Part shown: positions 1,611 through 11,984 of the stretch, piece by piece
Position numbering within the stretch: position 1 is the stretch's first letter
Layout: every line of letters starts with the position of its first letter
Origin: Clostridia bacterium
GTDB lineage: Bacteria > Bacillota > Clostridia > UBA1381
NCBI GenBank assembly: GCA_045580145.1
Contig: JAZNNI010000117.1
Span: 1 to 24,000 of the forward strand
Length of the DNA: 24,000 bases
Direction: 5' to 3'
The notes under the pieces: generated by a model
The model's input: the letters and a program-made list of their open reading frames with translations, nothing else
What the model was told of the DNA's origin: nothing
Databases searched by the model: none
Translations under genes and position numbers: made by a program

Positions 1611-1699
1611 GCCCAAGTGGCGGAATTGGCAGACGCCCAGGACTTAAAATCCTGTGGGACTAATATCCCGTGCCGGTTCGACCCCGGCCTTGGGCACCA
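1611..1699 (+). tRNA. tRNA-Leu (anticodon UAA), class II with long variable arm, encoded CCA
   Basis: Sequence: GCCCAAG...CAGGA-CTTAAAA-TCCTG-(variable arm TGGGACTAATATCCCGT)-GCCGG-TTCGACC-CCGGC-CTTGGGC-A-CCA. The acceptor stem GCCCAAG/CTTGGGC is perfect. Confidence 0.9.
1642..1699. repeat. attL: 58-bp direct repeat (anticodon loop to CCA of tRNA-Leu)
   Basis: ACTTAAAATCCTGTGGGACTAATATCCCGTGCCGGTTCGACCCCGGCCTTGGGCACCA matches 11927-11984 at every base (compared by eye). Flanking bases differ on both sides. Confidence 0.9.
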
Positions 1700-1700
1700 G

Positions 1701-1747
1701 AAAGTGGCTTAAAACCTTGTGTTTCGAGCCACTTTTCTTTTTTTCCT
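1701..1747 (+). terminator. Element-borne terminator replacing the native tRNA-Leu terminator
   Basis: AAAGTGGCT (1701-1709) pairs with AGCCACTTT (1727-1735), with an inner AAAC/GTTT pairing. It is followed by TCTTTTTTTCC. Confidence 0.6.
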
Positions 1748-1773
1748 ATTTACTCTCTTTCCGCTCCGATTCA

Positions 1774-1807
1774 ATTTTTCCACCAATTTCCACCAAATTT
1801 CCACCAA
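1774..1807. repeat. Three tandem copies of (A)ATTTCCACC(AA): candidate arm-type Int/Xis binding sites, attL side
   Basis: AATTTTTCCACC-AATTTCCACC-AAATTTCCACC-AA abuts the integrase stop codon (1808-1810). The same motif occurs twice, in the same orientation, at 11751-11772 near attR. Confidence 0.55.
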
Positions 1808-2959
1808 TTACATAGCAGCCCTTAAAAGTCCACTCATGACATTCGTAGCTTTTTTCTTTTGATTTATACTTGGATGCAGGTAAAAATTTGCTGTAGTAGT
1901 CATTGTAGAATGACCTAAATACTCCTGTATAATTTTCAGGTCTATGTCATTATCCAAAAGACTTGTGGCTACACTATGACGGATATCATGAAATCGTATA
2001 AGGGGAAGATTATTCTTTTTCAATAGGTCAGTAAATGCATGAGATACATAGCTTACTGCAAGAGGTTTTCCATCATCCCACCTACACACAAAGTCACTAT
2101 CAATATATCCCCCTCCAAGAAACAGCTTATCATTAGCCTGTATACTCCTCAGTTTGCAGAGATATCCATACATTTCGTCATCTATCGGAAGCTCTCGTGT
2201 ACTGCTTTCATTTTTTGTACTTTCCTGATACAGTTCCTTGTTAGCTGTTGTCCTTGTATTTCTGATATGAATTATTCTTCCATCGAGGTCTATGTCTGAC
2301 CATTTAAGTCCACATATCTCCCCTCGCCTTAATGCATAATGCGAACATAGGACTATCACACTTTCAAGTGCTGTACCCTTTGAAACAGATATAAGTTTTT
2401 TAAGTTGTTCTTCATTGTAAATATTAGGCTCATACTTTTTAATTTGTGGAAGAACAGTTCTGTCAGCCATATTGTAAGGAATAGCATTTTGCCTTAATGC
2501 TTCCTGCAATGCTTTTCTGATATTGGCATGATGCTTTTTCACTGTTGAAGCACTTAGTCCTCTATCAAGTAATGCATCATAATATGACTGAATGTGCTGA
2601 GGAAGTAACTCTGATAAGAGTATTTTCTGAGGCTTGAAATATGGAACAATATGATTATTTATAACATTACAGTAGTTATAATATGTTGTCGGCTTTAAAT
2701 TTTTCTCTATACGGTGGAGCCAGTTTTCCATATATTCATCAAATGTCATTTTCTGAAAAGGAACGATTTTCTGAACCTCAATCTTATTTTCATACTCCTT
2801 TCTGATTTCTTCCATTCGTTGTTCTGCTTTGCGTTTATTATTACCTTTAATAGGAACATCTGTAGAAATTTCCTTAGACCTTTTCTTCCCGCCTTCATCC
2901 CATTTCAAGATGCAATAATAACACTTTGCATTTTGTTTTTTTCTTAAATATGCTTTCAT
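1808..2959 (-). CDS. int: Tyrosine integrase (Tn916/phage-type, with N-terminal arm-binding-like domain and SAM-like core-binding domain)
   Basis: Catalytic motifs are ALRRGEICGLKWSDID (Arg), RFHDIRHSVATSLL (H-x-x-R) and LGHSTMTTTANFYLH (His...Tyr). The start was moved to ATG 2959 (MKAYLRKK) because AGAGAGG lies 7 nt upstream; the track start at 2989 is a GTG without an SD. Confidence 0.9.
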   Translation of the reverse strand: MKAYLRKKQNAKCYYCILKWDEGGKKRSKEISTDVPIKGNNKRKAEQRMEEIRKEYENKIEVQKIVPFQKMTFDEYMENWLHRIEKNLKPTTYYNYCNVINNHIVPYFKPQKILLSELLPQHIQSYYDALLDRGLSASTVKKHHANIRKALQEALRQNAIPYNMADRTVLPQIKKYEPNIYNEEQLKKLISVSKGTALESVIVLCSHYALRRGEICGLKWSDIDLDGRIIHIRNTRTTANKELYQESTKNESSTRELPIDDEMYGYLCKLRSIQANDKLFLGGGYIDSDFVCRWDDGKPLAVSYVSHAFTDLLKKNNLPLIRFHDIRHSVATSLLDNDIDLKIIQEYLGHSTMTTTANFYLHPSINQKKKATNVMSGLLRAAM

Positions 2960-3022
2960 CTTGTAACCTCTCTTTTCAATGATTGTCACTCAATGATTGC
3001 ACTATGTTGTATAGATTTATCA

Positions 3023-3220
3023 TCAAGCACTCTGCATGGCTATTTTTCTCAGGTAACTTTGTAATCCTGCTTTGGGAATAATATATTTACTTCTGACTTT
3101 TTTATTCGGAATTTCACCTGATTGCAAATACATATATGCTGTGCTTCTGCCTATATGAAGAATATTCATTAGGTCTTTTACAGAAAGAACATCACTATAA
3201 TTTTCCAGTATAATTACCAC
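3023..3220 (-). CDS. Excisionase-family / MerR-like winged-HTH DNA-binding protein (putative Xis)
   Basis: LSVKDLMNILHIGRSTAYMYLQSGEIPNKKVRSKYIIPKAGLQSYL matches the pattern of excisionase-type HTH_17 domains (L-T-V-x-E-x-A-x-x-L-x-V-S-x-x-T-V-Y-x-x...G-x-x-P...I-P). It lies directly upstream of int. The exact start is uncertain: the GTG at 3220 abuts the GAGG. Confidence 0.6.
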   Translation of the reverse strand: MVIILENYSDVLSVKDLMNILHIGRSTAYMYLQSGEIPNKKVRSKYIIPKAGLQSYLRKIAMQSA

Positions 3221-3260
3221 CTCTTTTCTCTTTTATTGTTGTTACAATTATCCGCTCCGA

Positions 3261-4343
3261 TTAAGCACTATTTTGTAACTTAGTCTTATTTTCTTCTCTT
3301 AAAGTAAGTCCTTGCAGATTATTATCCGATATTTTTCTCTTAATAAGTTTTATTGGGTTATCAAGTTTATCTATTCCCCATTTAGAAGGTATGAACATAT
3401 AAGGACAAATACCAAGCTTCATCAGTTTCTGATCAAAATGTCTGCTACTTACCTTATTATTTTTTGATTTAGCTAAGACGTACTCTCTAAATTCTTTTGT
3501 AGACTTCATTGTATTGAGCAGCTTTTTTACATAGCTGTAAGAGTAAAAGTCATACCTTGTAAAAAATTGTTCAATCTTATTACACACTGCATATTCAGCA
3601 ATTTTAATATCAATGAAGTCAACAAATTTTCTCTTTTCAAAATCAACATCAAATTTTTTACATATACTCTTTAGATAGACATAATGTGATTGAACCTCAA
3701 GTCTTAATATACCTTTACTTTCCTCTATTTCCTCTGTCTTAACAAAGCTCTTATTCAGCTTTTCCAACTGCTCATTTTGACGATAACTTAATTGATTTTC
3801 CTTATCATAGAAATTTATAGTAAAGTTTTGATTTTGATTGTGTTTCATTTGTCCTGTTGTTTTAAGATAAAAACTGGTATCAGGTTCAATATCTCTTATC
3901 TCATTAAAGGTTGAATAATTTGAAAAACGATTATCTTTATTATAGGTGTAAAAAAGATGAAAGAATTTAATGTACTCTTTGACATAATCAGTTTTGATAT
4001 TAAAGCAGAAATCAATTCTTGTTGACTTATTAGTAAGAATGTCAATTTTCTTACCCTTTATGTATTTATTAATTTTACTATTAAAGTCCTCAAAGAATTT
4101 TTCTAACTCTATCCTTGAATTAAAAATATCATCAAGGTTTCTAACATTCCCATAATTATCTATCCCTGTTATTTTTCCACCTATTAACAAGTTTTCTGAT
4201 GAAGGATAATAGGCTATTCTGATTTTTCTAATAAAGATAAAATAGTAAGTTTGTAAACAATTATTATCAACTACTACTTTCCAAGAAGAAACATCAATAT
4301 CTTTTTCTTTAACAGGGATAATGATTCTAATATTATCAATCAT
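3261..4343 (-). CDS. Rolling-circle replication initiator, Rep_trans / filamentous-phage gene II (CRI)-like
   Basis: The ordered motifs are typical of this superfamily. The N-terminus MIDNIRIIIP resembles the MIDxLxLRxP of phage gpII. TRIDFCFNI resembles SRIDATF/RIDxAxD. INFYDKENQ resembles RIYDK. GILRLEVQSHYVYLKS resembles GLVRFEARIKTRYLKS. Recognition is from memory of f1 gpII and pT181-type Reps, not from a search. Confidence 0.55.
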   Translation of the reverse strand: MIDNIRIIIPVKEKDIDVSSWKVVVDNNCLQTYYFIFIRKIRIAYYPSSENLLIGGKITGIDNYGNVRNLDDIFNSRIELEKFFEDFNSKINKYIKGKKIDILTNKSTRIDFCFNIKTDYVKEYIKFFHLFYTYNKDNRFSNYSTFNEIRDIEPDTSFYLKTTGQMKHNQNQNFTINFYDKENQLSYRQNEQLEKLNKSFVKTEEIEESKGILRLEVQSHYVYLKSICKKFDVDFEKRKFVDFIDIKIAEYAVCNKIEQFFTRYDFYSYSYVKKLLNTMKSTKEFREYVLAKSKNNKVSSRHFDQKLMKLGICPYMFIPSKWGIDKLDNPIKLIKRKISDNNLQGLTLREENKTKLQNSA

Positions 4344-4463
4344 TATTTACCCTATATAGTGATTTAAGCTAAATAAAATAACTTTTTTCACTATCCTTTG
4401 TTACAGTATTTGTTAATGAATTATATAACTCATTCTTGTAACTTTTCTAATATTAGATTAAAG

Positions 4464-4806
4464 GGTTAGCTAACCTTGTCACATATATAATTTTATCAAA
4501 CAAAAATGGAAAAGTCAATAATTTAACAATTTCGTAACACCTTTTTCGTGGCTATGAATAAGTTTGTGCATTCGCTCTACGGAAACATGCACAAAAAACT
4601 TATTTTTATTTTATTTAGTTTTAAGCATGCACAAAACATCAAGTTTTTTTTGTTAATTGTCCACAACAGTTGTTACAAAGTTATTACAGTTTTAGGAGTT
4701 TTATTTTCAGAAGTCGACTTCTACCAAGTATGAATATATCCGAAAAGGAAAATTGACTCAAATATGTAAAGTCAAGTTTTATGAAGGGGTGGTAAAATTT
4801 ACTACC
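4464..4806. promoter_or_regulatory. Divergent control region / candidate origin: cluster of palindromes and repeated ATGCACAAA boxes
   Basis: - GGTTAGCTAACC: 12-bp perfect palindrome, 4464-4475.
- TTTGTGCAT (4563-4571) inverted with ATGCACAAA (4587-4595), plus a third ATGCACAAAA at 4627-4636.
- ACAACAGTTGT at 4663-4673.
- AGAAGTCGACTTCT: 14-bp perfect palindrome, 4709-4722.
- TTGACT/AGTCAA at 4753-4758 and 4770-4775.
- GGTGGTAAAATTTACTACC: 19-bp near-palindrome, 4788-4806, abutting the SD at 4811. Confidence 0.4.
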
Positions 4807-4819
4807 AGTTAAGGAGGTG

Positions 4820-6004
4820 ATGCTCAGCATTAATATTTTTCCCAAGCAGGTACAAAAGTACCTGTTATTTTTTTACCCAAATTTCAGAAAGGATGAATTA
4901 AAAATGAAAGAAACAAAAAGAATTTGCAAGAGTTGTGGTTGTATCTGCACGAATGCAGCCATCTTAGTAAACCAAGGATTTGAGGATGAAGGATATGTTT
5001 GTCCCGACTGTATTTCATCAGGCTATTTTAAGTGCAGTCATTGTGGTGGGTATTACTCACAGCATTATCACTGGGCATCCGACAGTGACCTTACTATATG
5101 CAGTCATTGTTCCGCTCTTTACGAAATATGTGAAGACTGCTCAGAGATTGTCTTTAACACAGAAGTTCACTATCACAATGGCTATTACTATTGTCATAAC
5201 TGTTATGATGATATTGTCCGCGACAGCTTAGGTAATCTCATTGAGGATTACAGTTACAAGCCTGTTCCTGTTTTCTTAGGAGAGACCTCTGATAATCTCT
5301 ATCTTGGTGTAGAGCTTGAAGTCGACTCAGGTAACTCATACGAATCCGCAATCAGTATCTCGAATAAGTTCTCTGATGTGTACCTAAAGCGAGACGGAAG
5401 TTTAGAGACAGGATTTGAGATTGTATCTCATCCCGCGACACTTCATTATCACAAGTACGGATTAGGTTGGGAGTACATAATGAACATCTGCACCGATAAC
5501 AATATGAAAAGTCATGATACCTCAACCTGTGGCTTACACTGTCATGTCTCACGGCTGTTTTTCGGAGATACTCTAGATGAGCAGGACTTACATATTGCGA
5601 AGTTGATTTTACTTGTAAATAAGTTCTGGGATAATTACATCGTTCCATTCTCCAGAAGAAACATCACGCAACTTGACAGATGGGCAGCAAAGCCTAATGT
5701 AACTATACTCGACACCGACACAGAGGCAGAAATAATCGACAAGGTTAAAGGCACAAGATACAAAGGAAGATATCAGGGTATCAATCTTGAAAACAGCTAT
5801 ACAATAGAGTTTCGTATCTTTAGAGGAACATTAAAACTTAATACCTTTATAGCAACACTCCAGTTCGTGGACTGTATATGCAGATTTGCAAAATCAATGA
5901 AACTATCTGACATATACACTGTGAACTGTAGTGATTTGTTTTCAGGAAAAGGAAAAGATTATCCTGAGCTTATTGAATACTTGAAATCAAAAAATCTTAT
6001 GTAG
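4820..6004 (+). CDS. Zn-ribbon-repeat protein fused to an Amidoligase_2-type (glutamine synthetase/GCS2-like COOH-NH2 ligase) domain
   Basis: The N-terminal ~100 aa carry six CxxC pairs (CKSC, CPDC, CSHC, CSHC, CEDC, CHNC). These are followed by GVELEVDSG, YLKRDGSLETGFEIVSHP, CGLHCHVS and YTIEFRIFRGTL, the motif series I associate with Pfam Amidoligase_2. The start is ambiguous: ATG 4820 is only 2 nt after the strong SD AAGGAGG (4811-4817), while ATG 4904 (MKETKRICKSCG) has AAAGGA 10 nt upstream. Confidence 0.75.
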   Translation: MLSINIFPKQVQKYLLFFYPNFRKDELKMKETKRICKSCGCICTNAAILVNQGFEDEGYVCPDCISSGYFKCSHCGGYYSQHYHWASDSDLTICSHCSALYEICEDCSEIVFNTEVHYHNGYYYCHNCYDDIVRDSLGNLIEDYSYKPVPVFLGETSDNLYLGVELEVDSGNSYESAISISNKFSDVYLKRDGSLETGFEIVSHPATLHYHKYGLGWEYIMNICTDNNMKSHDTSTCGLHCHVSRLFFGDTLDEQDLHIAKLILLVNKFWDNYIVPFSRRNITQLDRWAAKPNVTILDTDTEAEIIDKVKGTRYKGRYQGINLENSYTIEFRIFRGTLKLNTFIATLQFVDCICRFAKSMKLSDIYTVNCSDLFSGKGKDYPELIEYLKSKNLM

Positions 6005-6016
6005 GAGGAATTTATT

Positions 6017-6883
6017 ATGTGTATAATAGCAATTAAGAATAAGGGAATTAACTTGCCTAGCGAGGAAACACTCGAAACAATGTTTAAGAACAATGCAGAT
6101 GGTGCTGGATTTATGTATGCGGCTAATAATAAGGTTATAATCAACAAAGGCTTTATGACTTTCCGCTCCTTTAAATCTGCTCTTGATAAGCTGTCTGAGA
6201 AGCATGACATAACTGACCTTCCTCTTGTAATGCATTTCCGCATAGCAACATCAGGACAGGTTGACGGTGGAACTACACATCCTTTTCCGCTGTCGGGTAA
6301 GAGAAAGAACCTAAAGAAGCAGTATATTGAAACTGACATTGGTATTGTCCATAATGGAATTATACCAATCAAAGCACCGCATAATATGTCGGATACAATG
6401 CAGTACATATCAAAGCAACTGACAGTCTACAAACGAATACAGTCAGACTTTTATAGCAGTGAACATTGGAGAAGAAAAATTGAAAAGGAAATTCAAAGTA
6501 AAATGGTGTTCTTGGATAACTCGGGTGAGATTTATATGATAGGAGATTTTGTGACGGATAATGGGATGATTTACAGCAATCATTCTTACGAGGAACGTTC
6601 TTTCTTGCTTGGATATGATAGATTCTTAGACTATCACTCAAAGAGTAAGCTCTGTCCGATTGATGGGTACATCACTACTGATTGCGGTGAACTCATAGAC
6701 TGCGAGGATGGACTGTATCTCATCAGTAAATACGGACAGGTGTATGAATATGACTTCTCCTTTGATGTTGCTGTTCCAATAGATGCATCAGCATATACCT
6801 ATGAGAATGTACCATTTTTTTATAACGAATCACAAGCATTGTACTTTGATGTGTCAGAATATCATTCTGTATTGATAGAATAG
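6017..6883 (+). CDS. Class II (Ntn-type) glutamine amidotransferase-like protein with an unassigned ~120-aa C-terminal domain
   Basis: The protein begins MCIIAIK (Cys2 as N-terminal nucleophile) and has VMHFRIATSG and GIVHNGII, as in PurF/GlmS-type GATase II domains. The SD TAGGAGG (6002-6008) overlaps the stop codon of the upstream gene, which indicates translational coupling. Confidence 0.7.
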   Translation: MCIIAIKNKGINLPSEETLETMFKNNADGAGFMYAANNKVIINKGFMTFRSFKSALDKLSEKHDITDLPLVMHFRIATSGQVDGGTTHPFPLSGKRKNLKKQYIETDIGIVHNGIIPIKAPHNMSDTMQYISKQLTVYKRIQSDFYSSEHWRRKIEKEIQSKMVFLDNSGEIYMIGDFVTDNGMIYSNHSYEERSFLLGYDRFLDYHSKSKLCPIDGYITTDCGELIDCEDGLYLISKYGQVYEYDFSFDVAVPIDASAYTYENVPFFYNESQALYFDVSEYHSVLIE

Positions 6884-7228
6884 TCTATTTTTGAAACAAA
6901 ACATACTTGGGGTATGTCAGGATATTACTAACCAAGACTGGTATCAAGATTATTTGTTTAAATCAATTATTTTCAACCGAGAATTCATTTTTGGGTGCTG
7001 GGTATGTAATCCATATGCCTGACATCAAATTTGGCTTACAGGAAAAATAAAGTCATTTTCCCCGAGAAAGGAGTGGTGCCTATGCTTGTCTAAAAAAGTG
7101 TACTTTATTAGATATAAATATTTCAGGTTTTAAGGACTTATTTTGTGTCCGACAAAGCCTGTTTTTGTTTATGAACATATCTACAAAGTGCAGACACATT
7201 TTCAAACAAATTGAAAGGATATTTTACT

Positions 7229-7831
7229 ATGGATAATAGACAGTTTGGATACGTCAGAGTATCATCAAAAGACCAGAACGAAGCAAGACAGATTTCGGCA
7301 CTACTTGACTTTGGAATATCTGAAAGAGACATTTACATCGACAAACAAAGCGGAAAAGATTTTAACCGCACACAATATCAGGTACTTCTCAATAACATTC
7401 GTTCGGGTGATTTGGTTGTGTTTTTATCACTTGATAGAATGGGCAGGAATTACACCGAGATACAAGAGCAGTGGAAGTATATCACAACCACTCTCGGAGC
7501 AGACATAAAGATACTGGATATGCCGCTCCTCGATACCCGAGAAGAAGGAAATAGCCTTGACCGCAGATTTATGTGCGACCTGATATTGCAAATCCTTGCC
7601 TATGTTGCTGAAAAAGAACGAGCTAACATCCGCTCTAGGCAGGCACAAGGAATTGCAACAGCTAAGGCTAATAACGTAAAGTTCGGCAGACCTGAAACTG
7701 TCCGTCCTGAAAATTGGGATGAAATCTGCAGCCTATGGCAGTCAGGGCAAATCACTGCAACTACTGCTATGAAACAGCTTGGACTAAAACGTTCCACATT
7801 CTACAATATGGTACGAAAGGAGAAACACTAA
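7229..7831 (+). CDS. Small serine recombinase (resolvase/invertase family) with C-terminal HTH
   Basis: FGYVRVSSKDQNEARQ contains the catalytic Ser. Other family motifs are DRMGRN, LDMPLLDT and AEKERANIRSRQAQGIATAK, with a C-terminal HTH (ITATTAMKQLGLKRSTFYNM). The start is set at ATG 7229, with AAAGGA 9 nt upstream; the track start 7211 is a TTG. Confidence 0.9.
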   Translation: MDNRQFGYVRVSSKDQNEARQISALLDFGISERDIYIDKQSGKDFNRTQYQVLLNNIRSGDLVVFLSLDRMGRNYTEIQEQWKYITTTLGADIKILDMPLLDTREEGNSLDRRFMCDLILQILAYVAEKERANIRSRQAQGIATAKANNVKFGRPETVRPENWDEICSLWQSGQITATTAMKQLGLKRSTFYNMVRKEKH

Positions 7832-7832
7832 T

Positions 7833-8087
7833 ATGAAAGAGGATATTTTTGCAAAACTTTTTTCCTCGAATTTTCTGGAGGAATATATGCAGTATGAGGA
7901 GGATGAGGAACTGGTAGCCTTATCCTCTAAACAACTGGAACTCGACCACCGCGTTCAATCTATGCCGCAAGAGATACAGGATTTTCTTACCGAATACATA
8001 TCAACTCAAAATCAAATCAATAGACATCTAAACTGCACATACTTTAAGACAGGCATAAAACTCTGTATTGCACTTATAAAAGGATAG
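7833..8087 (+). CDS. Hypothetical 84-aa acidic protein coupled to the serine recombinase
   Basis: The ATG lies 1 nt after the recombinase stop (TAATATG). The layout (acidic helical N-terminus, hydrophobic C-terminus FKTGIKLCIALI) resembles small proteins I recall next to recombinases on Clostridia mobile elements. I cannot name the family with confidence. Confidence 0.55.
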   Translation: MKEDIFAKLFSSNFLEEYMQYEEDEELVALSSKQLELDHRVQSMPQEIQDFLTEYISTQNQINRHLNCTYFKTGIKLCIALIKG

Positions 8088-8088
8088 T

Positions 8089-8120
8089 AAAAGAGAGTGC
8101 AATAGCACTCTCTTTATTTG
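8089..8120. terminator. Bidirectional terminator between convergent cargo modules
   Basis: AAGAGAGTGC (8091-8100), loop AATA, GCACTCTCTT (8105-8114). T-rich sequence follows on both strands. Confidence 0.7.
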
Positions 8121-8132
8121 CAGTAATACTAT

Positions 8133-8678
8133 TTAGCACCCTAGTATTCTTCTTACAATGTTTGTAACTCTTTCAAGCCAATCCATTTCTGAAGTTATTG
8201 TTAAGTCCAAATCATCAAGAGTCTTAATCTCTATATTCTTCTGAATAAATATAGCATCATCAAGTACTGTAGCCGAAATTTCTTTGAAAGTATACATAGC
8301 AATACTTCTTGTTTCCTCTATTTTATCGGGCGTAAGCACTCTAGAAGCATACTGTTCGGAGAGGTATTTGCCTTGTTTTAAATCAGATACAACATCTAAC
8401 ACTCTTGAATAGGGTACAATGTTACTTTCTTGGTATCGATAACTAGGCGATATAGCTGTCCTAAGTGTTTGGTGTGTGCCATTATTATCGATATCAAGAA
8501 AATGATAATATTTCCTCGGAGATAGATAACCATAAGAACAATTTGTGTTTGGATTATTAAAACAGATAATATCCAAACACTTTTCACTCCCATCATAGTT
8601 CAGAACTGTTTGTGGTATTGCACCTACAACATCTAATGTTGTATTATCTAATATTTCTTGTGTTTTTCTAAAATGCAT
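8133..8678 (-). CDS. Hypothetical protein (181 aa), third gene of the LRR operon
   Basis: Long ORF with SD TTGAGGGA 8 nt upstream of the ATG and consistent AT-rich codon usage. No signal peptide, TM segment or recognisable catalytic motif. Confidence 0.6.
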   Translation of the reverse strand: MHFRKTQEILDNTTLDVVGAIPQTVLNYDGSEKCLDIICFNNPNTNCSYGYLSPRKYYHFLDIDNNGTHQTLRTAISPSYRYQESNIVPYSRVLDVVSDLKQGKYLSEQYASRVLTPDKIEETRSIAMYTFKEISATVLDDAIFIQKNIEIKTLDDLDLTITSEMDWLERVTNIVRRILGC

Positions 8679-8725
8679 TATAAATCCCTCAACTTTCTTC
8701 AGGTGTAATTATTATTTACTCACAA

Positions 8726-10123
8726 TCAATGGTCTTCTAACCATTCCAAATATTCTTCTCTACAACCAAAGTCTGACTCTGTGTACCCACCTCGAACATC
8801 ATCGTCGTAATATTCGCCAAAATAATGCTCTACTTCATAAAAATCAATTAAAGCTGGTTTGTCAGCATAAACATGCTCAAATTGTTTCGCGCCCATAGCA
8901 CAGTCACCAGCAATTTCCACATTATCAACATTGTTCACTATTATTTGTTTTAATTTTTCACATCCACTAAACGCCATTGACTCCACTTTTTTAACGCTAC
9001 TTGGTATCACTATTTTTTCCACAATATCATTTTTTCCAAATGCATTATATGCCACAATAGTAATGCCGTCAGGAATTTTTTGCGTAGATGAATAATTACC
9101 TCTTACTTTATTCAAAGTTGTCTTGTATATATCCATTTCATCCAATGTGTATTCAAACCCATAAGAAGTATGTACTTTCTTTCCCTTAATTGCTGGACAT
9201 TTTGGTTCGTATCCAAATGCACATCTAGAAATTATATCAATTTTGTCTGGAATATTAATGCTTTCTAATAAGTCGCATTCCTCAAATGCAAAGTCACAAA
9301 TACTCTTTATTGTGTTTGGCAATACTACAGTACGCAAGTTTTTACATCCTTTAAACGCAGAACTAGGTATGTAAGTAATTTTTGCCAAAATTATTACTGA
9401 GGTCAAATTCTCACAGTAATTAAAAAGACCATGGTTAATAGAAGAACGTAGATGCTCTTCATAATTTTCTATCTCTACAAAAGATTTTGGTGCTACTGTT
9501 ACAACACTTTCGGGAATAACAATATTAAGAATACTTTTACACCCCCAAAAACATTTATCTCCTATGCTTATTACACTATTCGGGATTGAAATATTTAGAA
9601 GGTTTTCGCAGTGTGCAAATGCACCATCGCCAATACTCATAACACTATTCGGTATCGAAATGCTATGTAAACCTTTACACATACAAAAAGCCGACTCATC
9701 AATTTGAGTAATTCCATTTTCTATTGCAATACTTATTGGAAATTTGATATTTTCAAATGCGTACTCTTCAATGCGCATAACATTAGATGTAATTATATAG
9801 CGACTTGCTTTTCTTGCTGCAGGATAACGAATTAATGTTGATTTATCTTTACTAAATAAGACTCCTTCAACAGAAGAGAAATAAATATTTTCTTCACTAA
9901 CGTCAATTCTTTCAAGTTCTTTTAATTTTCCAAAATTAATTAAAATCTCTCTTACCGTGCTTGGTATATAAATACTTTTTATATTCTCATCACCATCACT
10001 GTATCGCGATATTAGTTCCTCGACCTTTGTAACACCTTCAGGGATTACAATATTTCCTTCATTTCCCATATACGAAATAAGTGTGGTTCCTTCAATTTTA
10101 AAAAGTTCTTGATTATATTCCAT
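8726..10123 (-). CDS. BspA-type leucine-rich repeat (LRR_5-like) protein, no signal peptide
   Basis: The protein contains many copies of the ~23-25-aa unit I-P-x-S-V-x-S-I-G-x-x-A-F-x-x-C-x-x-L-x-x-I, for example SISIPNSVMSIGDGAFAHCENLLNISIPNSVISIGDKCFWGCKSILNIVIPESV. The N-terminus MEYNQELFKIEG is not hydrophobic. The C-terminus is acidic, with no LPXTG or anchor. SD TAGGAG is present. Confidence 0.85.
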   Translation of the reverse strand: MEYNQELFKIEGTTLISYMGNEGNIVIPEGVTKVEELISRYSDGDENIKSIYIPSTVREILINFGKLKELERIDVSEENIYFSSVEGVLFSKDKSTLIRYPAARKASRYIITSNVMRIEEYAFENIKFPISIAIENGITQIDESAFCMCKGLHSISIPNSVMSIGDGAFAHCENLLNISIPNSVISIGDKCFWGCKSILNIVIPESVVTVAPKSFVEIENYEEHLRSSINHGLFNYCENLTSVIILAKITYIPSSAFKGCKNLRTVVLPNTIKSICDFAFEECDLLESINIPDKIDIISRCAFGYEPKCPAIKGKKVHTSYGFEYTLDEMDIYKTTLNKVRGNYSSTQKIPDGITIVAYNAFGKNDIVEKIVIPSSVKKVESMAFSGCEKLKQIIVNNVDNVEIAGDCAMGAKQFEHVYADKPALIDFYEVEHYFGEYYDDDVRGGYTESDFGCREEYLEWLEDH

Positions 10124-10134
10124 AATGTATACTC

Positions 10135-10425
10135 CTACTTTAATTTAAATTCAATTTTTCCGTCCCATATAATATTCTCGAGTTTATAACTTTTTTCCTC
10201 TTTAAATCCATATTCATTTGAAATGGATACTATCTGCTTTGTTACCTCATTGAATTTATCCCCTTCTATCGCAATAGAATATGAAACCGACAGTTCGTTG
10301 TTTTCGCTACTATCCACAAAGCAAAACACATTACCATTAGCAACATAAGACCTATCTTCAACCAATCCAATTCCTCTCAATAGGTTTCTTATATCAGTCT
10401 TTAACTGTTCTTTTTTATTATCCAT
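10135..10425 (-). CDS. Hypothetical protein (96 aa from ATG 10425), first gene of the LRR operon
   Basis: The ORF ends 11 nt before the LRR gene start. ATG 10425 (MDNKKEQ) is preferred over the TTG at 10461. No recognisable domain. Confidence 0.55.
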   Translation of the reverse strand: MDNKKEQLKTDIRNLLRGIGLVEDRSYVANGNVFCFVDSSENNELSVSYSIAIEGDKFNEVTKQIVSISNEYGFKEEKSYKLENIIWDGKIEFKLK

Positions 10426-10442
10426 AATTCCGTCCCTTTCTT

Positions 10443-10523
10443 TCACTAATTGTATCACCAATTATCGCTTATGTCAATATTTATTTTCACCAATAGTGTA
10501 ATATTTAATTATAAAATGTAATA
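10443..10523. promoter_or_regulatory. Divergent promoter/operator region between the XRE gene and the LRR operon
   Basis: TCAC(T/C)AAT boxes occur at 10443-10450, 10455-10462 and 10487-10494. TGTAATA direct repeats occur at 10496-10502 and 10517-10523. The interval is AT-rich with several TATAAA/TAAAAT -10-like hexamers. Confidence 0.3.
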
Positions 10524-10545
10524 AAATATACAAAGGAGACCAACT

Positions 10546-10830
10546 ATGAAAAGTGAGTTATCAGAGAATATAAAAAAGCTAAGACATCAAAAGAACCTAA
10601 CCCAAACACAGCTTGCACAAAGGCTCGGAGTTGCCTTATCAACCATTGCATCATACGAAAACCAAGACCGCATGCCGTCAATACCTATGCTTGTCAAACT
10701 GTCATACGAATTTAATGTGACTATTGAATATCTACTTGGAGTGAACAAGAACAAAACACTTGATGTCTCAGACTTATCCGATGAACAAATCCTTGCACTT
10801 AACAGTGTAATAGAACAATTCAGGAAATGA
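10546..10830 (+). CDS. XRE-family HTH transcriptional regulator
   Basis: IKKLRHQKNLTQTQLAQRLGVALSTIASYENQDRMPSIPMLVKLSYEFNVTIEYLLG is a canonical HTH_3/Cro-C1 domain. SD AAAGGAG is present. Confidence 0.85.
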   Translation: MKSELSENIKKLRHQKNLTQTQLAQRLGVALSTIASYENQDRMPSIPMLVKLSYEFNVTIEYLLGVNKNKTLDVSDLSDEQILALNSVIEQFRK

Positions 10831-10833
10831 TGA

Positions 10834-10870
10834 CGAAAAAAAGAACAACCCAAAAGGTTGCTCTTTCTGT
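10834..10870. terminator. Bidirectional terminator (XRE gene on +, candidate sRNA/PBECR transcript on -)
   Basis: AAGAACAACCC (10841-10851), loop AAAA, GGTTGCTCTT (10856-10865). On the minus strand the stem (one G-U pair) is followed by TTTTTTT (10835-10841). On the plus strand it is followed by TCTGTTT. Confidence 0.65.
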
Positions 10871-10969
10871 TTACAAACTAAATGGCAGGGTGGCACTCCT
10901 GCATCTCTTTAAGACCATAAAGGCGTGATAGCTGCCCGTTCTATCCTCATTCAGTTTGTCTTTTATTGT
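10835..10969 (-). ncRNA. Candidate ~135-nt small RNA defined by its own promoter and terminator
   Basis: The interval runs from the predicted TSS (~7 nt after the -10 at 10976-10981) to the terminator U-tract. It contains a locally GC-rich core with the hairpin GCAGG-N8-CCTGC. There is no SD-preceded ORF; only 8-13-codon ATG frames are present. Confidence 0.3.
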
Positions 10970-10975
10970 ATTTAC

Positions 10976-11004
10976 ATTATACCATAATTATACACACAAG
11001 TCAA
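10976..11004 (-). promoter_or_regulatory. Near-consensus sigma-A promoter immediately downstream of the PBECR-like gene
   Basis: Minus strand: TTGACT (11004-10999), 17 nt spacer, TATAAT (10981-10976). Confidence 0.55.
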
Positions 11005-11012
11005 CAAAAATT

Positions 11013-11441
11013 TTAGTCTTTATTAAATTTCCATATTCTATTTTTCTTTTCATAATCAGCAAGTTGACTGTCTGTTATAGGGTACATCGTTCTAAATGAT
11101 AGCTTTCCATCAGTAGAAACCCTGACTGCTATAAGGACATTATCATTATAACACTTAATAAACTGTATGCTCAAATCATGTGGTGGAACACCTATATAAT
11201 CAGGCTCTTTTATAATCTTTGGAATATCCTCAATGTACTTTTCAAAATCACCATATGAGAAATTGCTTCTGTGTTTCTCTATGTGTTCTAATCTGTTTGA
11301 CCACATCAAGATATTATTAGTCTTTAAAACATCCTCTAAATCAGGTCTGTTCTGTATAATTAAATCAATTTGTTCTTTACTTAGTTTCCCTACAGAGATA
11401 CATTTGCAATCATCGTTAAATCTGTCTATGTCTAATTTCAA
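11013..11441 (-). CDS. Putative Barnase/EndoU/ColicinE5-D/RelE-like (PBECR-type) nuclease domain protein, 142 aa
   Basis: TTG start with GAGGT 7 nt upstream. The segment LMWSNRLEHIEKHRSNFSYGDFEKYIEDIPKIIKEPDYIGVPPHDLSIQFIKCYNDNVLIAVRVSTDGKLSFRTMYPIT matches a pattern I recall for stand-alone PBECR proteins of Firmicutes phages and ICEs (xRIxHIxxRH...YxxYIxxIPxIIxxPDYI...V(A)VR). The family assignment is from memory only. Confidence 0.6.
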   Translation of the reverse strand: MKLDIDRFNDDCKCISVGKLSKEQIDLIIQNRPDLEDVLKTNNILMWSNRLEHIEKHRSNFSYGDFEKYIEDIPKIIKEPDYIGVPPHDLSIQFIKCYNDNVLIAVRVSTDGKLSFRTMYPITDSQLADYEKKNRIWKFNKD

Positions 11442-11470
11442 TACACTTACCTCATCATTTGTTTTCTATG

Positions 11471-11499
11471 ATTATACTACAAATATTTTAAATAATCAA
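11471..11499 (-). promoter_or_regulatory. Promoter of the PBECR-like gene
   Basis: Minus strand: TTGATT (11499-11494), 17 nt spacer, TATAAT (11476-11471). The TTG start is at 11441. Confidence 0.5.
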
Positions 11500-11750
11500 G
11501 TCCCCAAAACCACCACACTATAAAAACACACTTTTATCTCATATCATATCAAAGTGGTTTCAGGCAAATAATATTTGACTTTGGGGAAGATTTCTCCTTC
11601 TATTCACAAATTATTTCATACGAAGAAGGAGAGGTGTTTAGACTTATGAAAGGCTTATTTTTTTATGACAAATTTTCCCTTCCTTTCCCCACAGCACTTT
11701 TAGGTGGCAAAGCAGCACGAAGTAATAATCCTATTGGGTTTTCACTTTTA

Positions 11751-11772
11751 AAATTTCCACCAAATTTCCACC
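11751..11772. repeat. Two tandem AAATTTCCACC repeats: candidate arm-type sites, attR side
   Basis: AAATTTCCACC-AAATTTCCACC lies 155 bp inside attR. It has the same motif and orientation as the three copies at 1774-1807. Confidence 0.5.
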
Positions 11773-11926
11773 AAATTTTAAATGAAATCAAAAACCAATA
11801 AAATATTAAGAAAATAAAATTAATTGTTGAAAAAGTCTAATAAATGGCATAAGTAAGCCAATATTAAAGAACACAAAAGAGAGTAAAAAATCACTTAACA
11901 ACATAGTACAATCACCCTAAATACCC

Positions 11927-11984
11927 ACTTAAAATCCTGTGGGACTAATATCCCGTGCCGGTTCGACCCCGGCCTTGGGCACCA
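11927..11984. repeat. attR: second copy of the 58-bp tRNA-Leu 3' half
   Basis: Identical to 1642-1699. It lacks the 5' 31 nt of the tRNA, so it is a fragment and not a gene. Confidence 0.9.

Follow-up and report, generated by a model that had tools for sequence, protein, structure and literature searches.

The 24,000-nt stretch of Clostridial DNA analysed here (the window; positions 1 to 24,000 of contig JAZNNI010000117.1, assembly GCA_045580145.1) carries a two-gene operon whose products are predicted to be a zinc-module-bearing ligase of the Amidoligase_2 family and a class II glutamine amidotransferase (GAT). The operon lies in a small element integrated at a tRNA-Leu gene (Table 1). Both open reading frames (ORFs) had been recognized in a preliminary description of the window, made from the sequence alone, and both are present. 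They are also translationally coupled, as described there: the TAG stop of gene 1 sits inside the Shine-Dalgarno (SD) sequence TAGGAGG of gene 2, 9 nt ahead of the ATG at 6017. The start of gene 1, placed at 4820 in that description, probably has to be moved. The reading frame is open from GTG 4817/ATG 4820 to the TAG at 6002–6004, and ATG 4904 is the start in an identical database protein (P0001, 366 aa) and in every close homologue; it is preceded by an SD of its own (AGAAAGGATGAA-N6-ATG) and lies 3′ of a terminator-like hairpin (4845–4866). For these reasons gene 1 probably starts at 4904, 84 nt after the earlier choice.

The ligase motifs GVELEVD, KxDGSL, GFEIVSHP, CGLHxHxxR and TIEFRxF are fully or almost invariant in an alignment of 26 homologues of gene 1, and residues E137, E139, D141, E172, H212, H214, R217, R251, R252, E302 and R304 do not vary among these sequences. 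The window protein itself scores 20.3–20.5 bits against PF12224 (E 5e-4), below the cut-off of 22, but all 26 aligned homologues match the family (E <= 0.01, best 6e-10), with P0081 and P0114 reaching 36–38 bits, and PF12224 is present in most of the top 120 database relatives. Judged from these profile comparisons, the membership in Amidoligase_2, which had been proposed from the motifs, is carried by the family as a whole and not by the window protein alone. Database relatives of gene 1 fall into more than 2,000 protein clusters, and ∼590 were confirmed among the first 600 pattern matches per collection scan; these numbers are lower bounds. Gene 1 also matches PHROG 16683 (E 3e-72). With the AlphaFold2 model (pLDDT, the predicted local distance difference test score, 87.7) Foldseek retrieved glutamine synthetase (GS) III (3o6x, E 7e-4), GS I (8tfc, probability 1.00), GmaS (9qur) and PafA/Dop (probability 0.9–0.96), with TM-scores kept low (0.3–0.38) by differences in protein size. 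A sequence search of the PDB gave no match for the catalytic domain of either gene 1 or gene 2. The profile and fold matches point to gene 1 encoding a GS-fold ATP-dependent carboxylate–amine ligase with a recruitment arm.

This arm is formed by six CxxC pairs (C8/11, 33/36, 44/47, 66/69, 76/79 and 97/100 in the 366-aa numbering), that is, 12 Cys in three Cys4 modules within the first 110 residues, and the pairs are invariant among the 26 aligned homologues. The modules are acidic in 118 of the 118 homologues checked (median net charge −15 per 100 aa) and their size ranges from 4 to 35 Cys. In the PDB the profile matches the LIM domains of paxillin and PINCH (E 4e-5), the Pfam LIM family is matched by three of the 26 relatives, and Foldseek places the module near LMO2 and CRP1. 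Because the module is acidic and LIM-like, it is more likely a modular protein-binding arm than a nucleic-acid-binding one; of the two roles suggested earlier for the zinc ribbons, protein binding is thus preferred. Tandem Cys-rich double zinc fingers of similar spacing are shared with eukaryotic LIM domains (paxillin, PINCH, LMO2, CRP), whereas the ligands in gene 1 are all Cys in CxxC pairs, without the His or Asp ligand, and the array is encoded by bacteria or phages, variable in number and fused to an enzyme; the likeness may be homology or convergence.

Seven longer homologues (P0049, P0055, P0081, P0086, P0098, P0101 and P0114) carry, C- or N-terminally, one to three copies of a ∼60-aa repeat (VGDRVIIR.W.DM...G....ITTDMI). 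A Pfam search with this repeat gave no match; it is possibly another target-binding module. Homologues of 510–680 aa were considered as natural ligase–GAT fusions and turned out to carry extra zinc modules and C-terminal VGDRVIIR.W.DM repeats instead. The absence of such a fusion is expected, since the GAT requires a free N-terminal Cys.

The product of gene 2 (288 aa) begins with MCIIAI. In an alignment of 44 homologues, down to 38% identity, M1-C2, R75, T78, H88-P-F-P91, H112-N113-G114 and S125-D126-T127 are invariant, so that the motifs quoted in the preliminary description for both proteins are borne out by their conservation. We take Cys2, R75, T78, N113-G114 and D126 to be equivalent to Cys1, Arg73, Thr76, Asn-Gly and Asp of PurF and GlmS. 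Against GATase_4 the window protein scores 18.9 bits, below the cut-off of 23, and 22 of the 44 relatives match this family weakly (E <= 0.01). The structural model (pLDDT 87.9) retrieved in Foldseek the glutaminase domains of GFAT-1 and GlmS (E 6e-6 to 4e-4, probability 1.00), followed by PurF and proteasome subunits; the structural matches also include phage Gn_AT_II proteins (E 2e-19) and a phage ‘YafJ’. From its sequence and its modelled fold, gene 2 is predicted to encode an N-terminal nucleophile (Ntn) amidohydrolase of the class II GAT fold with an intact glutamine/gamma-glutamyl pocket, as the preliminary description had it. The C-terminal domain was described there as ∼120 aa long; it is in fact ∼80 aa, a separate all-beta domain at residues 207–283 that is conserved family-wide. 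No Pfam family matches it, and phmmer, run exhaustively against 1.8 billion representatives, gave only 17 matches, mostly to the same GAT family. The other matches were discarded; they involve large proteins of unrelated kinds, among them pyrroloquinoline quinone (PQQ) propellers, and are limited to short beta-hairpins. Identification of the domain as CBM_5_12 was likewise dropped, the matches being weak and confined to two of the 44 relatives.

The pairing of the two genes was assessed in 159 related loci, 80 from genomes (all of gut or rumen Clostridia, mostly metagenome-assembled genomes) and 79 from IMG/VR viral contigs (loci are labelled L below). The ORFs of these loci were called and searched with hidden Markov models (HMMs) made for this analysis, and pairing was scored in the 141 loci having at least 900 nt 3′ of the ligase. 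A GAT-II-like ORF with an N-terminal Cys starts between −60 and +300 nt from the ligase stop in 128 of them (91%), and a GAT lies within 3.4 kb in six more. Among the 128 partners, 46 are of the window type, including those of all the closest relatives, with gaps of 0–13 nt; the other 82 are of a second, canonical type B (MCGLFG...GHTR..TQG...NNHPF...AHNG...ETDS) that likewise begins with MC, has a different C-terminal tail and passes the GATase_6 cut-off. The HMM of the canonical family does not detect the window-type GAT. Profile–profile comparison does relate the two types (93% probability, E 3e-7), and in hhalign the pocket residues of gene 2 line up with the HTR..T.G, HNG and TDS motifs of the canonical family. 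The adjacency is seen in annotated phages as well: in MEP401/402, where the genes overlap beside primase, helicase and polymerase, and in mycobacteriophage Marvin (gp105/gp106). In LUZ24-like phages both genes are present a short distance apart (PMC3890496). The pairing proposed from the single window copy therefore recurs in other genomes; it is specific to mobile elements and phages and not to a housekeeping pathway, and the two proteins are made in fixed proportion. No third gene is constantly linked to the pair across the compared loci.

Two further genes recur near the pair in some lineages. A 94-aa DUF960 protein (PF06124, E 1e-26) is often encoded directly 5′ of the ligase in the Ruminococcus/Oscillospiraceae clade (type B loci L012, L026, L052, L068, L078 and many others), and DUF2958 comes after the GAT in L171 and L174. 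Both may be further components of the module in these lineages.

We propose, with a probability of roughly 0.4, that the two gene products are the subunits of one glutamine-dependent, amide-forming enzyme of mobile elements, by which a carboxylate on a recruited target is amidated. The gene 2 product would shed its initiator Met and expose Cys1 as the N-terminal nucleophile for glutamine hydrolysis. The ammonia released would be handed, presumably within a complex of the two proteins, to the gene 1 product, which would phosphorylate the carboxylate with ATP and convert the acyl-phosphate to the amide. The carboxylate would belong to a macromolecule, with a protein or an envelope precursor as the likeliest candidates, and the ligase would recruit this target through its acidic arm of three LIM-like zinc fingers. 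Glutamine-dependent amidation is the only self-contained two-enzyme reaction, and, as no third gene is consistently linked, a self-contained reaction of carboxylate, ATP and glutamine is the most economical reading. Amidation also fits the canonical amidotransferase character of the commoner partner type (82 loci): a canonical GATase_6-type domain is the ammonia donor in known amidotransferases, and ammonia is the native nucleophile of GS-fold enzymes.

Several points weigh against amidation. We know of no amidotransferase that combines a GAT with a GS-fold synthetase, and every GS-fold ligase characterized to our knowledge activates the gamma-carboxylate of glutamate, which suits a gamma-glutamyl chemistry equally. 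The residues of the GAT pocket do not discriminate glutamine from a gamma-glutamyl amide, being common to EgtC and YafJ-type enzymes, and both window proteins stay under the Pfam gathering cut-offs. Furthermore, other Amidoligase_2 branches pair with a gamma-glutamyl cyclotransferase and not with a GAT (Pfam description; PMC11318856), a swap that counts against amidation because an ammonia donor is not replaceable by a gamma-glutamyl cyclotransferase.

Some of these points bear on the main rival, which we consider somewhat less likely than amidation, namely a gamma-glutamyl (or other amino-acyl) tagging cycle. The ligase would activate glutamate, either as the free amino acid or as the C-terminal residue of a peptide, and link its gamma-carboxylate to an amine of whatever target the zinc arm has bound. 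The GAT-II-like protein would donate no ammonia; as the matching gamma-glutamyl amidohydrolase, deamidase or transferase, it would take the tag off, edit it or prime it. As is generally known, the characterized GS-fold carboxylate–amine ligases (GS, GshA/GCS2, PuuA, GmaS and PafA) all use the glutamate gamma-carboxylate, and GmaS and PafA/Dop are among the fold matches of gene 1. Pairings of a GS-like ligase with a GAT-like hydrolase are also general knowledge (EgtA/EgtC, PuuA/PuuD, and GmaS with the GAT-II-like subunit of N-methylglutamate synthase), as is the precedent of PafA/Dop as ligase and deamidase. Moreover, GATase_4 (YafJ/EgtC-type) is the Pfam family that gene 2 and its relatives match weakly, with a phage ‘YafJ’ among the structural matches; a LIM-like protein-binding arm would suit a protein-tagging ligase; and the cyclotransferase adjoining other Amidoligase_2 branches also cleaves gamma-glutamyl–amine bonds (PMC11318856). 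Set against this, a translationally coupled writer and eraser with no step between them would run a futile cycle unless they acted at different times or on different substrates, and 82 of the 128 partners are of the canonical GATase_6 type, not the YafJ/EgtC type. No conserved small ORF that could encode a Pup-like tag protein was found beside the pair across the loci, where the downstream sequence is variable (59/60-aa ORFs, DUF2958 or none), and a C-terminal Glu or Gln is not conserved in gene 2 or in the neighbouring proteins.

The zinc arm bears on the nature of the substrate. The pair might make or destroy a soluble metabolite and leave macromolecules alone, examples being a signalling molecule, a gamma-glutamyl amine, or a nucleotide or cofactor in amidated form; oligomerization or regulation would then be the only task of the arm. 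GS-fold enzymes do act mostly on small molecules, phage papers class the pair as auxiliary metabolic genes, and novel metabolites are among the products predicted by Iyer et al. (2009; PMID 20023723, as cited in PMC10580990). We nevertheless find a small-molecule route quite unlikely: the copy number of the zinc modules is very variable and some homologues have extra C-terminal repeat domains, which look like adaptable target recognition and would be needless for a fixed small-molecule substrate, and no transporter or further biosynthetic gene is linked to the pair. A more specific proposal makes the ligase a protein modifier, its acidic LIM-like array (of variable copy number) docking on a specific host protein in which ligase and Ntn partner would amidate or glutamylate an acidic or lysine residue; in this specific form we hold the idea to be unlikely.

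Expression of the operon appears to be controlled from the 560-nt intergenic region between gene 1 and the divergent Rep-like gene. The preliminary description saw here one palindrome-rich control region. Reverse-complement 9-mer pairs are indeed enriched, 18 in the whole region versus 4.6 ± 3.0 in dinucleotide shuffles (a count reached by none of 300 shuffles), but the region consists of two separate parts. The AT-rich part proximal to the Rep-like gene, enriched in inverted repeats, has 15 such pairs versus 2.9 ± 2.4 in shuffles (again reached by 0 of 300) and, adjoining the Rep-like gene, probably contains the origin and operators. The second part is the operon's conserved, terminator-bearing leader, in which a TTGACT box, a hairpin, an invariant AAGGAGGTGATG (SD–ATG) with a vestigial mini-ORF, the intrinsic-terminator hairpin at 4845–4866 and a T-run can be recognized. 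The sequence of the leader hairpin varies while its pairing is retained, and the terminator stem is maintained via one- and two-sided changes. In nhmmer searches the leader is found in L001, L160–L162 and L170–L173 (E 1e-45 to 1e-67) and in part in L174; copies lie at 7793–8010 in L001, 7156–7368 in L160, 1626–1842 in L161, 214–425 in L170 and 1948–2154 in L171. Conservation is higher in the leader than in the coding sequence, with a mean column identity of 79% against ∼66–69% identity of the ligases in L001 and L161. In the distant elements L166 and L163 a hairpin followed by a T-run also precedes the ligase. An Rfam search with the leader gave no family at the gathering threshold or at E <= 10, and an exact pattern scan of metagenome and viral collections gave no more copies. 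The leader is a candidate new cis-regulatory attenuator, and, given the intrinsic terminator upstream of gene 1, expression of the operon seems to depend on terminator read-through and hence to be conditional.

Two ideas on regulation were rejected. A Gln-rich leader peptide (MQQHQ or MKQHQ in two loci) acting as the attenuation sensor is contradicted by the mini-ORF being destroyed in L160 (ATG–TAA) and frame-shifted in the window. An invertible promoter was suggested by a 22-nt inverted repeat (4360–4381/4606–4627) near a DNA-invertase-type recombinase; relatives with the same recombinase have no comparable repeat.

Table 1. Features of the operon and of the integrated element in the window
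Feature	Position	Strand	Evidence
tRNA-Leu(taa); 3′ 58 nt (1642–1699) = attL	1611–1699	+	ARAGORN, Rfam tRNA, direct repeat
Tyrosine integrase	1808–2989	−	Phage_integrase E 1.8e-26 and SAM-like N-domain; 60% identical to L166 integrase
Excisionase-like HTH_17 protein, 65 aa	3023–3220	−	PF12728, 37.2 bits (cut-off 27); HTH_17 gene at same position in L166/L167/L174
360-aa backbone protein, Rep-like	3261–4343	−	41% identical to 358-aa protein at same position in L166
AT-rich stretch enriched in inverted repeats (candidate origin, operators, promoters)	4344–4697	.	GC 0.28
Conserved operon leader, 206 nt	4698–4903	+	nhmmer across nine loci
Gene 1: three Cys4 LIM-like acidic Zn modules (residues 1–110) and predicted GS-fold Amidoligase_2 domain (residues 120–366)	4904–6004	+	
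Gene 2: predicted Ntn (Cys2) class II GAT domain (residues 1–190) and family-specific beta domain (207–283)	6017–6883	+	
Small serine recombinase (resolvase/invertase type)	7211–7831	+	Resolvase E 7e-26 and HTH_7; PHROG 125 DNA invertase E 2e-48
attR, perfect 58-nt copy of tRNA-Leu 3′ end	11927–11984	+	direct repeat

The operon was described beforehand as lying on a tRNA-integrated element, and this is confirmed: the 3′ 58 nt of tRNA-Leu(taa) (1642–1699) recur without a mismatch as a direct repeat at 11927–11984, and the two copies bound an element of 10.3 kb (∼1700–11984). The designation of the pair as the lead cargo of this element has to be given up. The backbone order, integrase, Xis, rolling-circle Rep-like protein, leader, ligase, GAT and serine recombinase, is the gene order of L166 and L167, with L174 similar; identities between the window and L166/L167 are 60% for the integrase, 41% for the Rep-like protein, 53% for the ligase, 37% for the GAT and 76% for the recombinase. 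The variable genes sit 3′ of the serine recombinase, where an 84-aa ORF is followed in the window by a BspA-type leucine-rich repeat protein, two unknowns, a skipping-rope RNA and a PBECR3 nuclease. Since the order is common to L166, L167 and L174 and the variable genes lie elsewhere, we assign the ligase–GAT pair to the backbone that these small integrative elements share as a family, and not to their variable cargo. The 360-aa Rep-like protein of the window itself has no Pfam match; among 21 aligned relatives, five match Phage_CRI (G2P N-terminal, best E 7e-6) and one matches Rep_trans, which makes it probably a divergent rolling-circle replication initiator, and the element would then replicate by rolling circle.

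The serine recombinase of the window is 94% identical to its counterpart in L160 and 76% to that in L166. A resolvase homologue on the same strand and at most 2.5 kb downstream of the pair occurs in 26 of 115 pair-bearing loci, and it recurs 60–1500 nt 3′ of the pair with both GAT partner types (e.g. L016, L034, L049, L074, L090, L160, L166 and L174). It may resolve multimers of the replicated element or move the module.

Other observations concern the ends and the variable part of the element. Two copies of a TTTCCACCAAATTTCCACCAAATTT motif, 81% identical (1770–1800 and 11748–11778), lie just inside the two ends and could be arm-type integrase binding sites. Just outside attL there are a second, shorter ORF of the Phage_integrase family (58–792, + strand, 244 aa, E 4.5e-20) and a tRNA-Trp (1212–1285, − strand); their adjacency to attL suggests a hotspot in this tRNA cluster, at which elements integrate repeatedly. 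The skipping-rope RNA is full-length (10877–10955, − strand; RF02924, 68 bits against a gathering threshold of 36.7, E 1e-14) and lies just downstream of the PBECR3/PBECR2 nuclease ORF (11013–11441, − strand; barnase/EndoU-like). We know of no function for this RNA.

The gene content of the element bears on two further explanations. In viral contigs, amidoligase and glutamine amidotransferase genes occur beside the thymidine-hypermodification genes 5-HMUDK and aGPT-Pplase (Lee et al., PMC8989533), and the pair could accordingly be thought to decorate a modified pyrimidine or purine in the element DNA and so evade restriction. Such DNA base hypermodification is most improbable here: the element has no dUMP hydroxymethylase, 5-HMUDK, aGPT-Pplase, TET/JBP or DNA polymerase gene and is replicated by the host within the chromosome, the zinc arm is strongly acidic, and the compact pair is also found alone between host genes (L161, L171).

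The second explanation, close to the conflict system favoured in the preliminary description, is host-beneficial anti-phage defence, in which the pair would sense infection and modify a phage or host component, by amidation or gamma-glutamyl chemistry, with abortive infection as the outcome. Defence-like genes do neighbour the relatives. In L160, which holds the nearest relative of the window element, a gene pair for AAA_21 and RloB, which we take to be AbiL-like by domain content, is inserted between GAT and recombinase (9406–11401 of L160, − strand) and marks this site as a cargo slot; elsewhere the ligase–GAT pair, where it is not alone, is found beside DUF4062 (L161), ToxN (L170), DUF2958 or SocA_Panacea/VbhA (L163), and the window element encodes the PBECR3 nuclease. 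We judge defence to be very unlikely all the same. The defence-system models of PADLOC-DB v2.0.0 include no family matching the protein of gene 1 or gene 2 at E <= 1, nothing in the data shows a defence or anti-defence role, and the pair is no less common in the genomes of lytic and temperate phages, beside replication genes (PMC3890496). Because the pair is fixed in the backbone and common in phages, while defence-like genes fill variable slots, its function more plausibly serves the invading DNA. The amidation that we prefer would then benefit the element or phage itself, in establishment, host takeover or superinfection exclusion, and would have no part in host housekeeping.

That Amidoligase_2 and GAT-II-like genes form pairs in phages and plasmids was predicted computationally by Iyer, Abhiman, Burroughs and Aravind (2009; PMID 20023723, as cited in PMC10580990), and the pairing is embedded in Pfam and in phage annotations. 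The window copy belongs to this known category; in agreement with the preliminary description, we found no experimental work on such a pair in the literature. The pairs of phiEco32, LUZ24-like phages, Marvin (gp105/gp106) and the OM43 phages MEP401/402 likewise consist of a GS-fold ligase followed by a class II GAT with an N-terminal Cys on mobile DNA, and the sequence relatives of the window pair include those of Marvin and MEP401/402, which are equally uncharacterized. The Clostridia branch differs from them in several respects: the ligase has an N-terminal array of Cys4 LIM-like zinc modules, the GAT is divergent, related by profile–profile and fold comparison only, and has a C-terminal beta domain of its own, the operon has a conserved terminator-bearing leader, and it is a backbone component of a small integrative element instead of belonging to a phage early region. 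The acidic LIM-like array, the divergent GAT with its beta domain, the leader and the backbone status in an element of the rolling-circle replication type refine the picture of the category without changing it.

Characterized systems offer partial parallels. MurT/GatD, which amidates iso-glutamate of peptidoglycan (PMC3267633), and AsnB/LtsA-type enzymes likewise join a glutaminase to an ATP-dependent carboxylate-to-amide enzyme, with co-transcribed genes. MurT, however, has a Mur-ligase fold and GatD is a class I (triad) GAT, whereas the window pair combines a GS fold with a separate class II GAT, and no sequence relationship of MurT/GatD to the pair was found; in AsnB/LtsA the substrate is adenylated in a PP-loop domain fused to the GAT, which in the window is a separate polypeptide. 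EgtA/EgtC (ergothioneine), PuuA/PuuD (putrescine), GmaS with N-methylglutamate synthase, and PafA/Dop (pupylation) have the same ligase fold class as gene 1, and EgtC is a hydrolase of the same class II Ntn GAT kind as gene 2, to judge by the weak GATase_4 matches. All of these pathways are chromosomal, serve metabolism or proteostasis, and involve intervening enzymes or a dedicated tag protein, for which no gene is linked to the window pair; none of the pathways has a zinc-finger arm such as that of gene 1, and sequence similarity of the window pair to them is undetectable.

Few modules in the genomes of phages and mobile elements are as widespread and yet as little understood as that of amidoligase and GAT-II, for which we know of no identified substrate 17 years after its prediction. 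The window instance offers a compact test bed for it, a 2-kb operon with its own regulatory leader in a 10.3-kb element with defined ends, and the zinc arm could be used as bait for the target. The backbone status of the pair changes the question, which becomes why the element needs it rather than how the host benefits. Were the target to prove a host protein or an envelope precursor, mobile elements would be seen to use a new enzymatic strategy against their hosts. Should it be a specific host protein that is modified, phages and small integrative elements of gut Clostridia would possess a previously unseen way of disabling or repurposing host machinery by post-translational modification, in effect a weaponized bacterial equivalent of pupylation or polyglutamylation.

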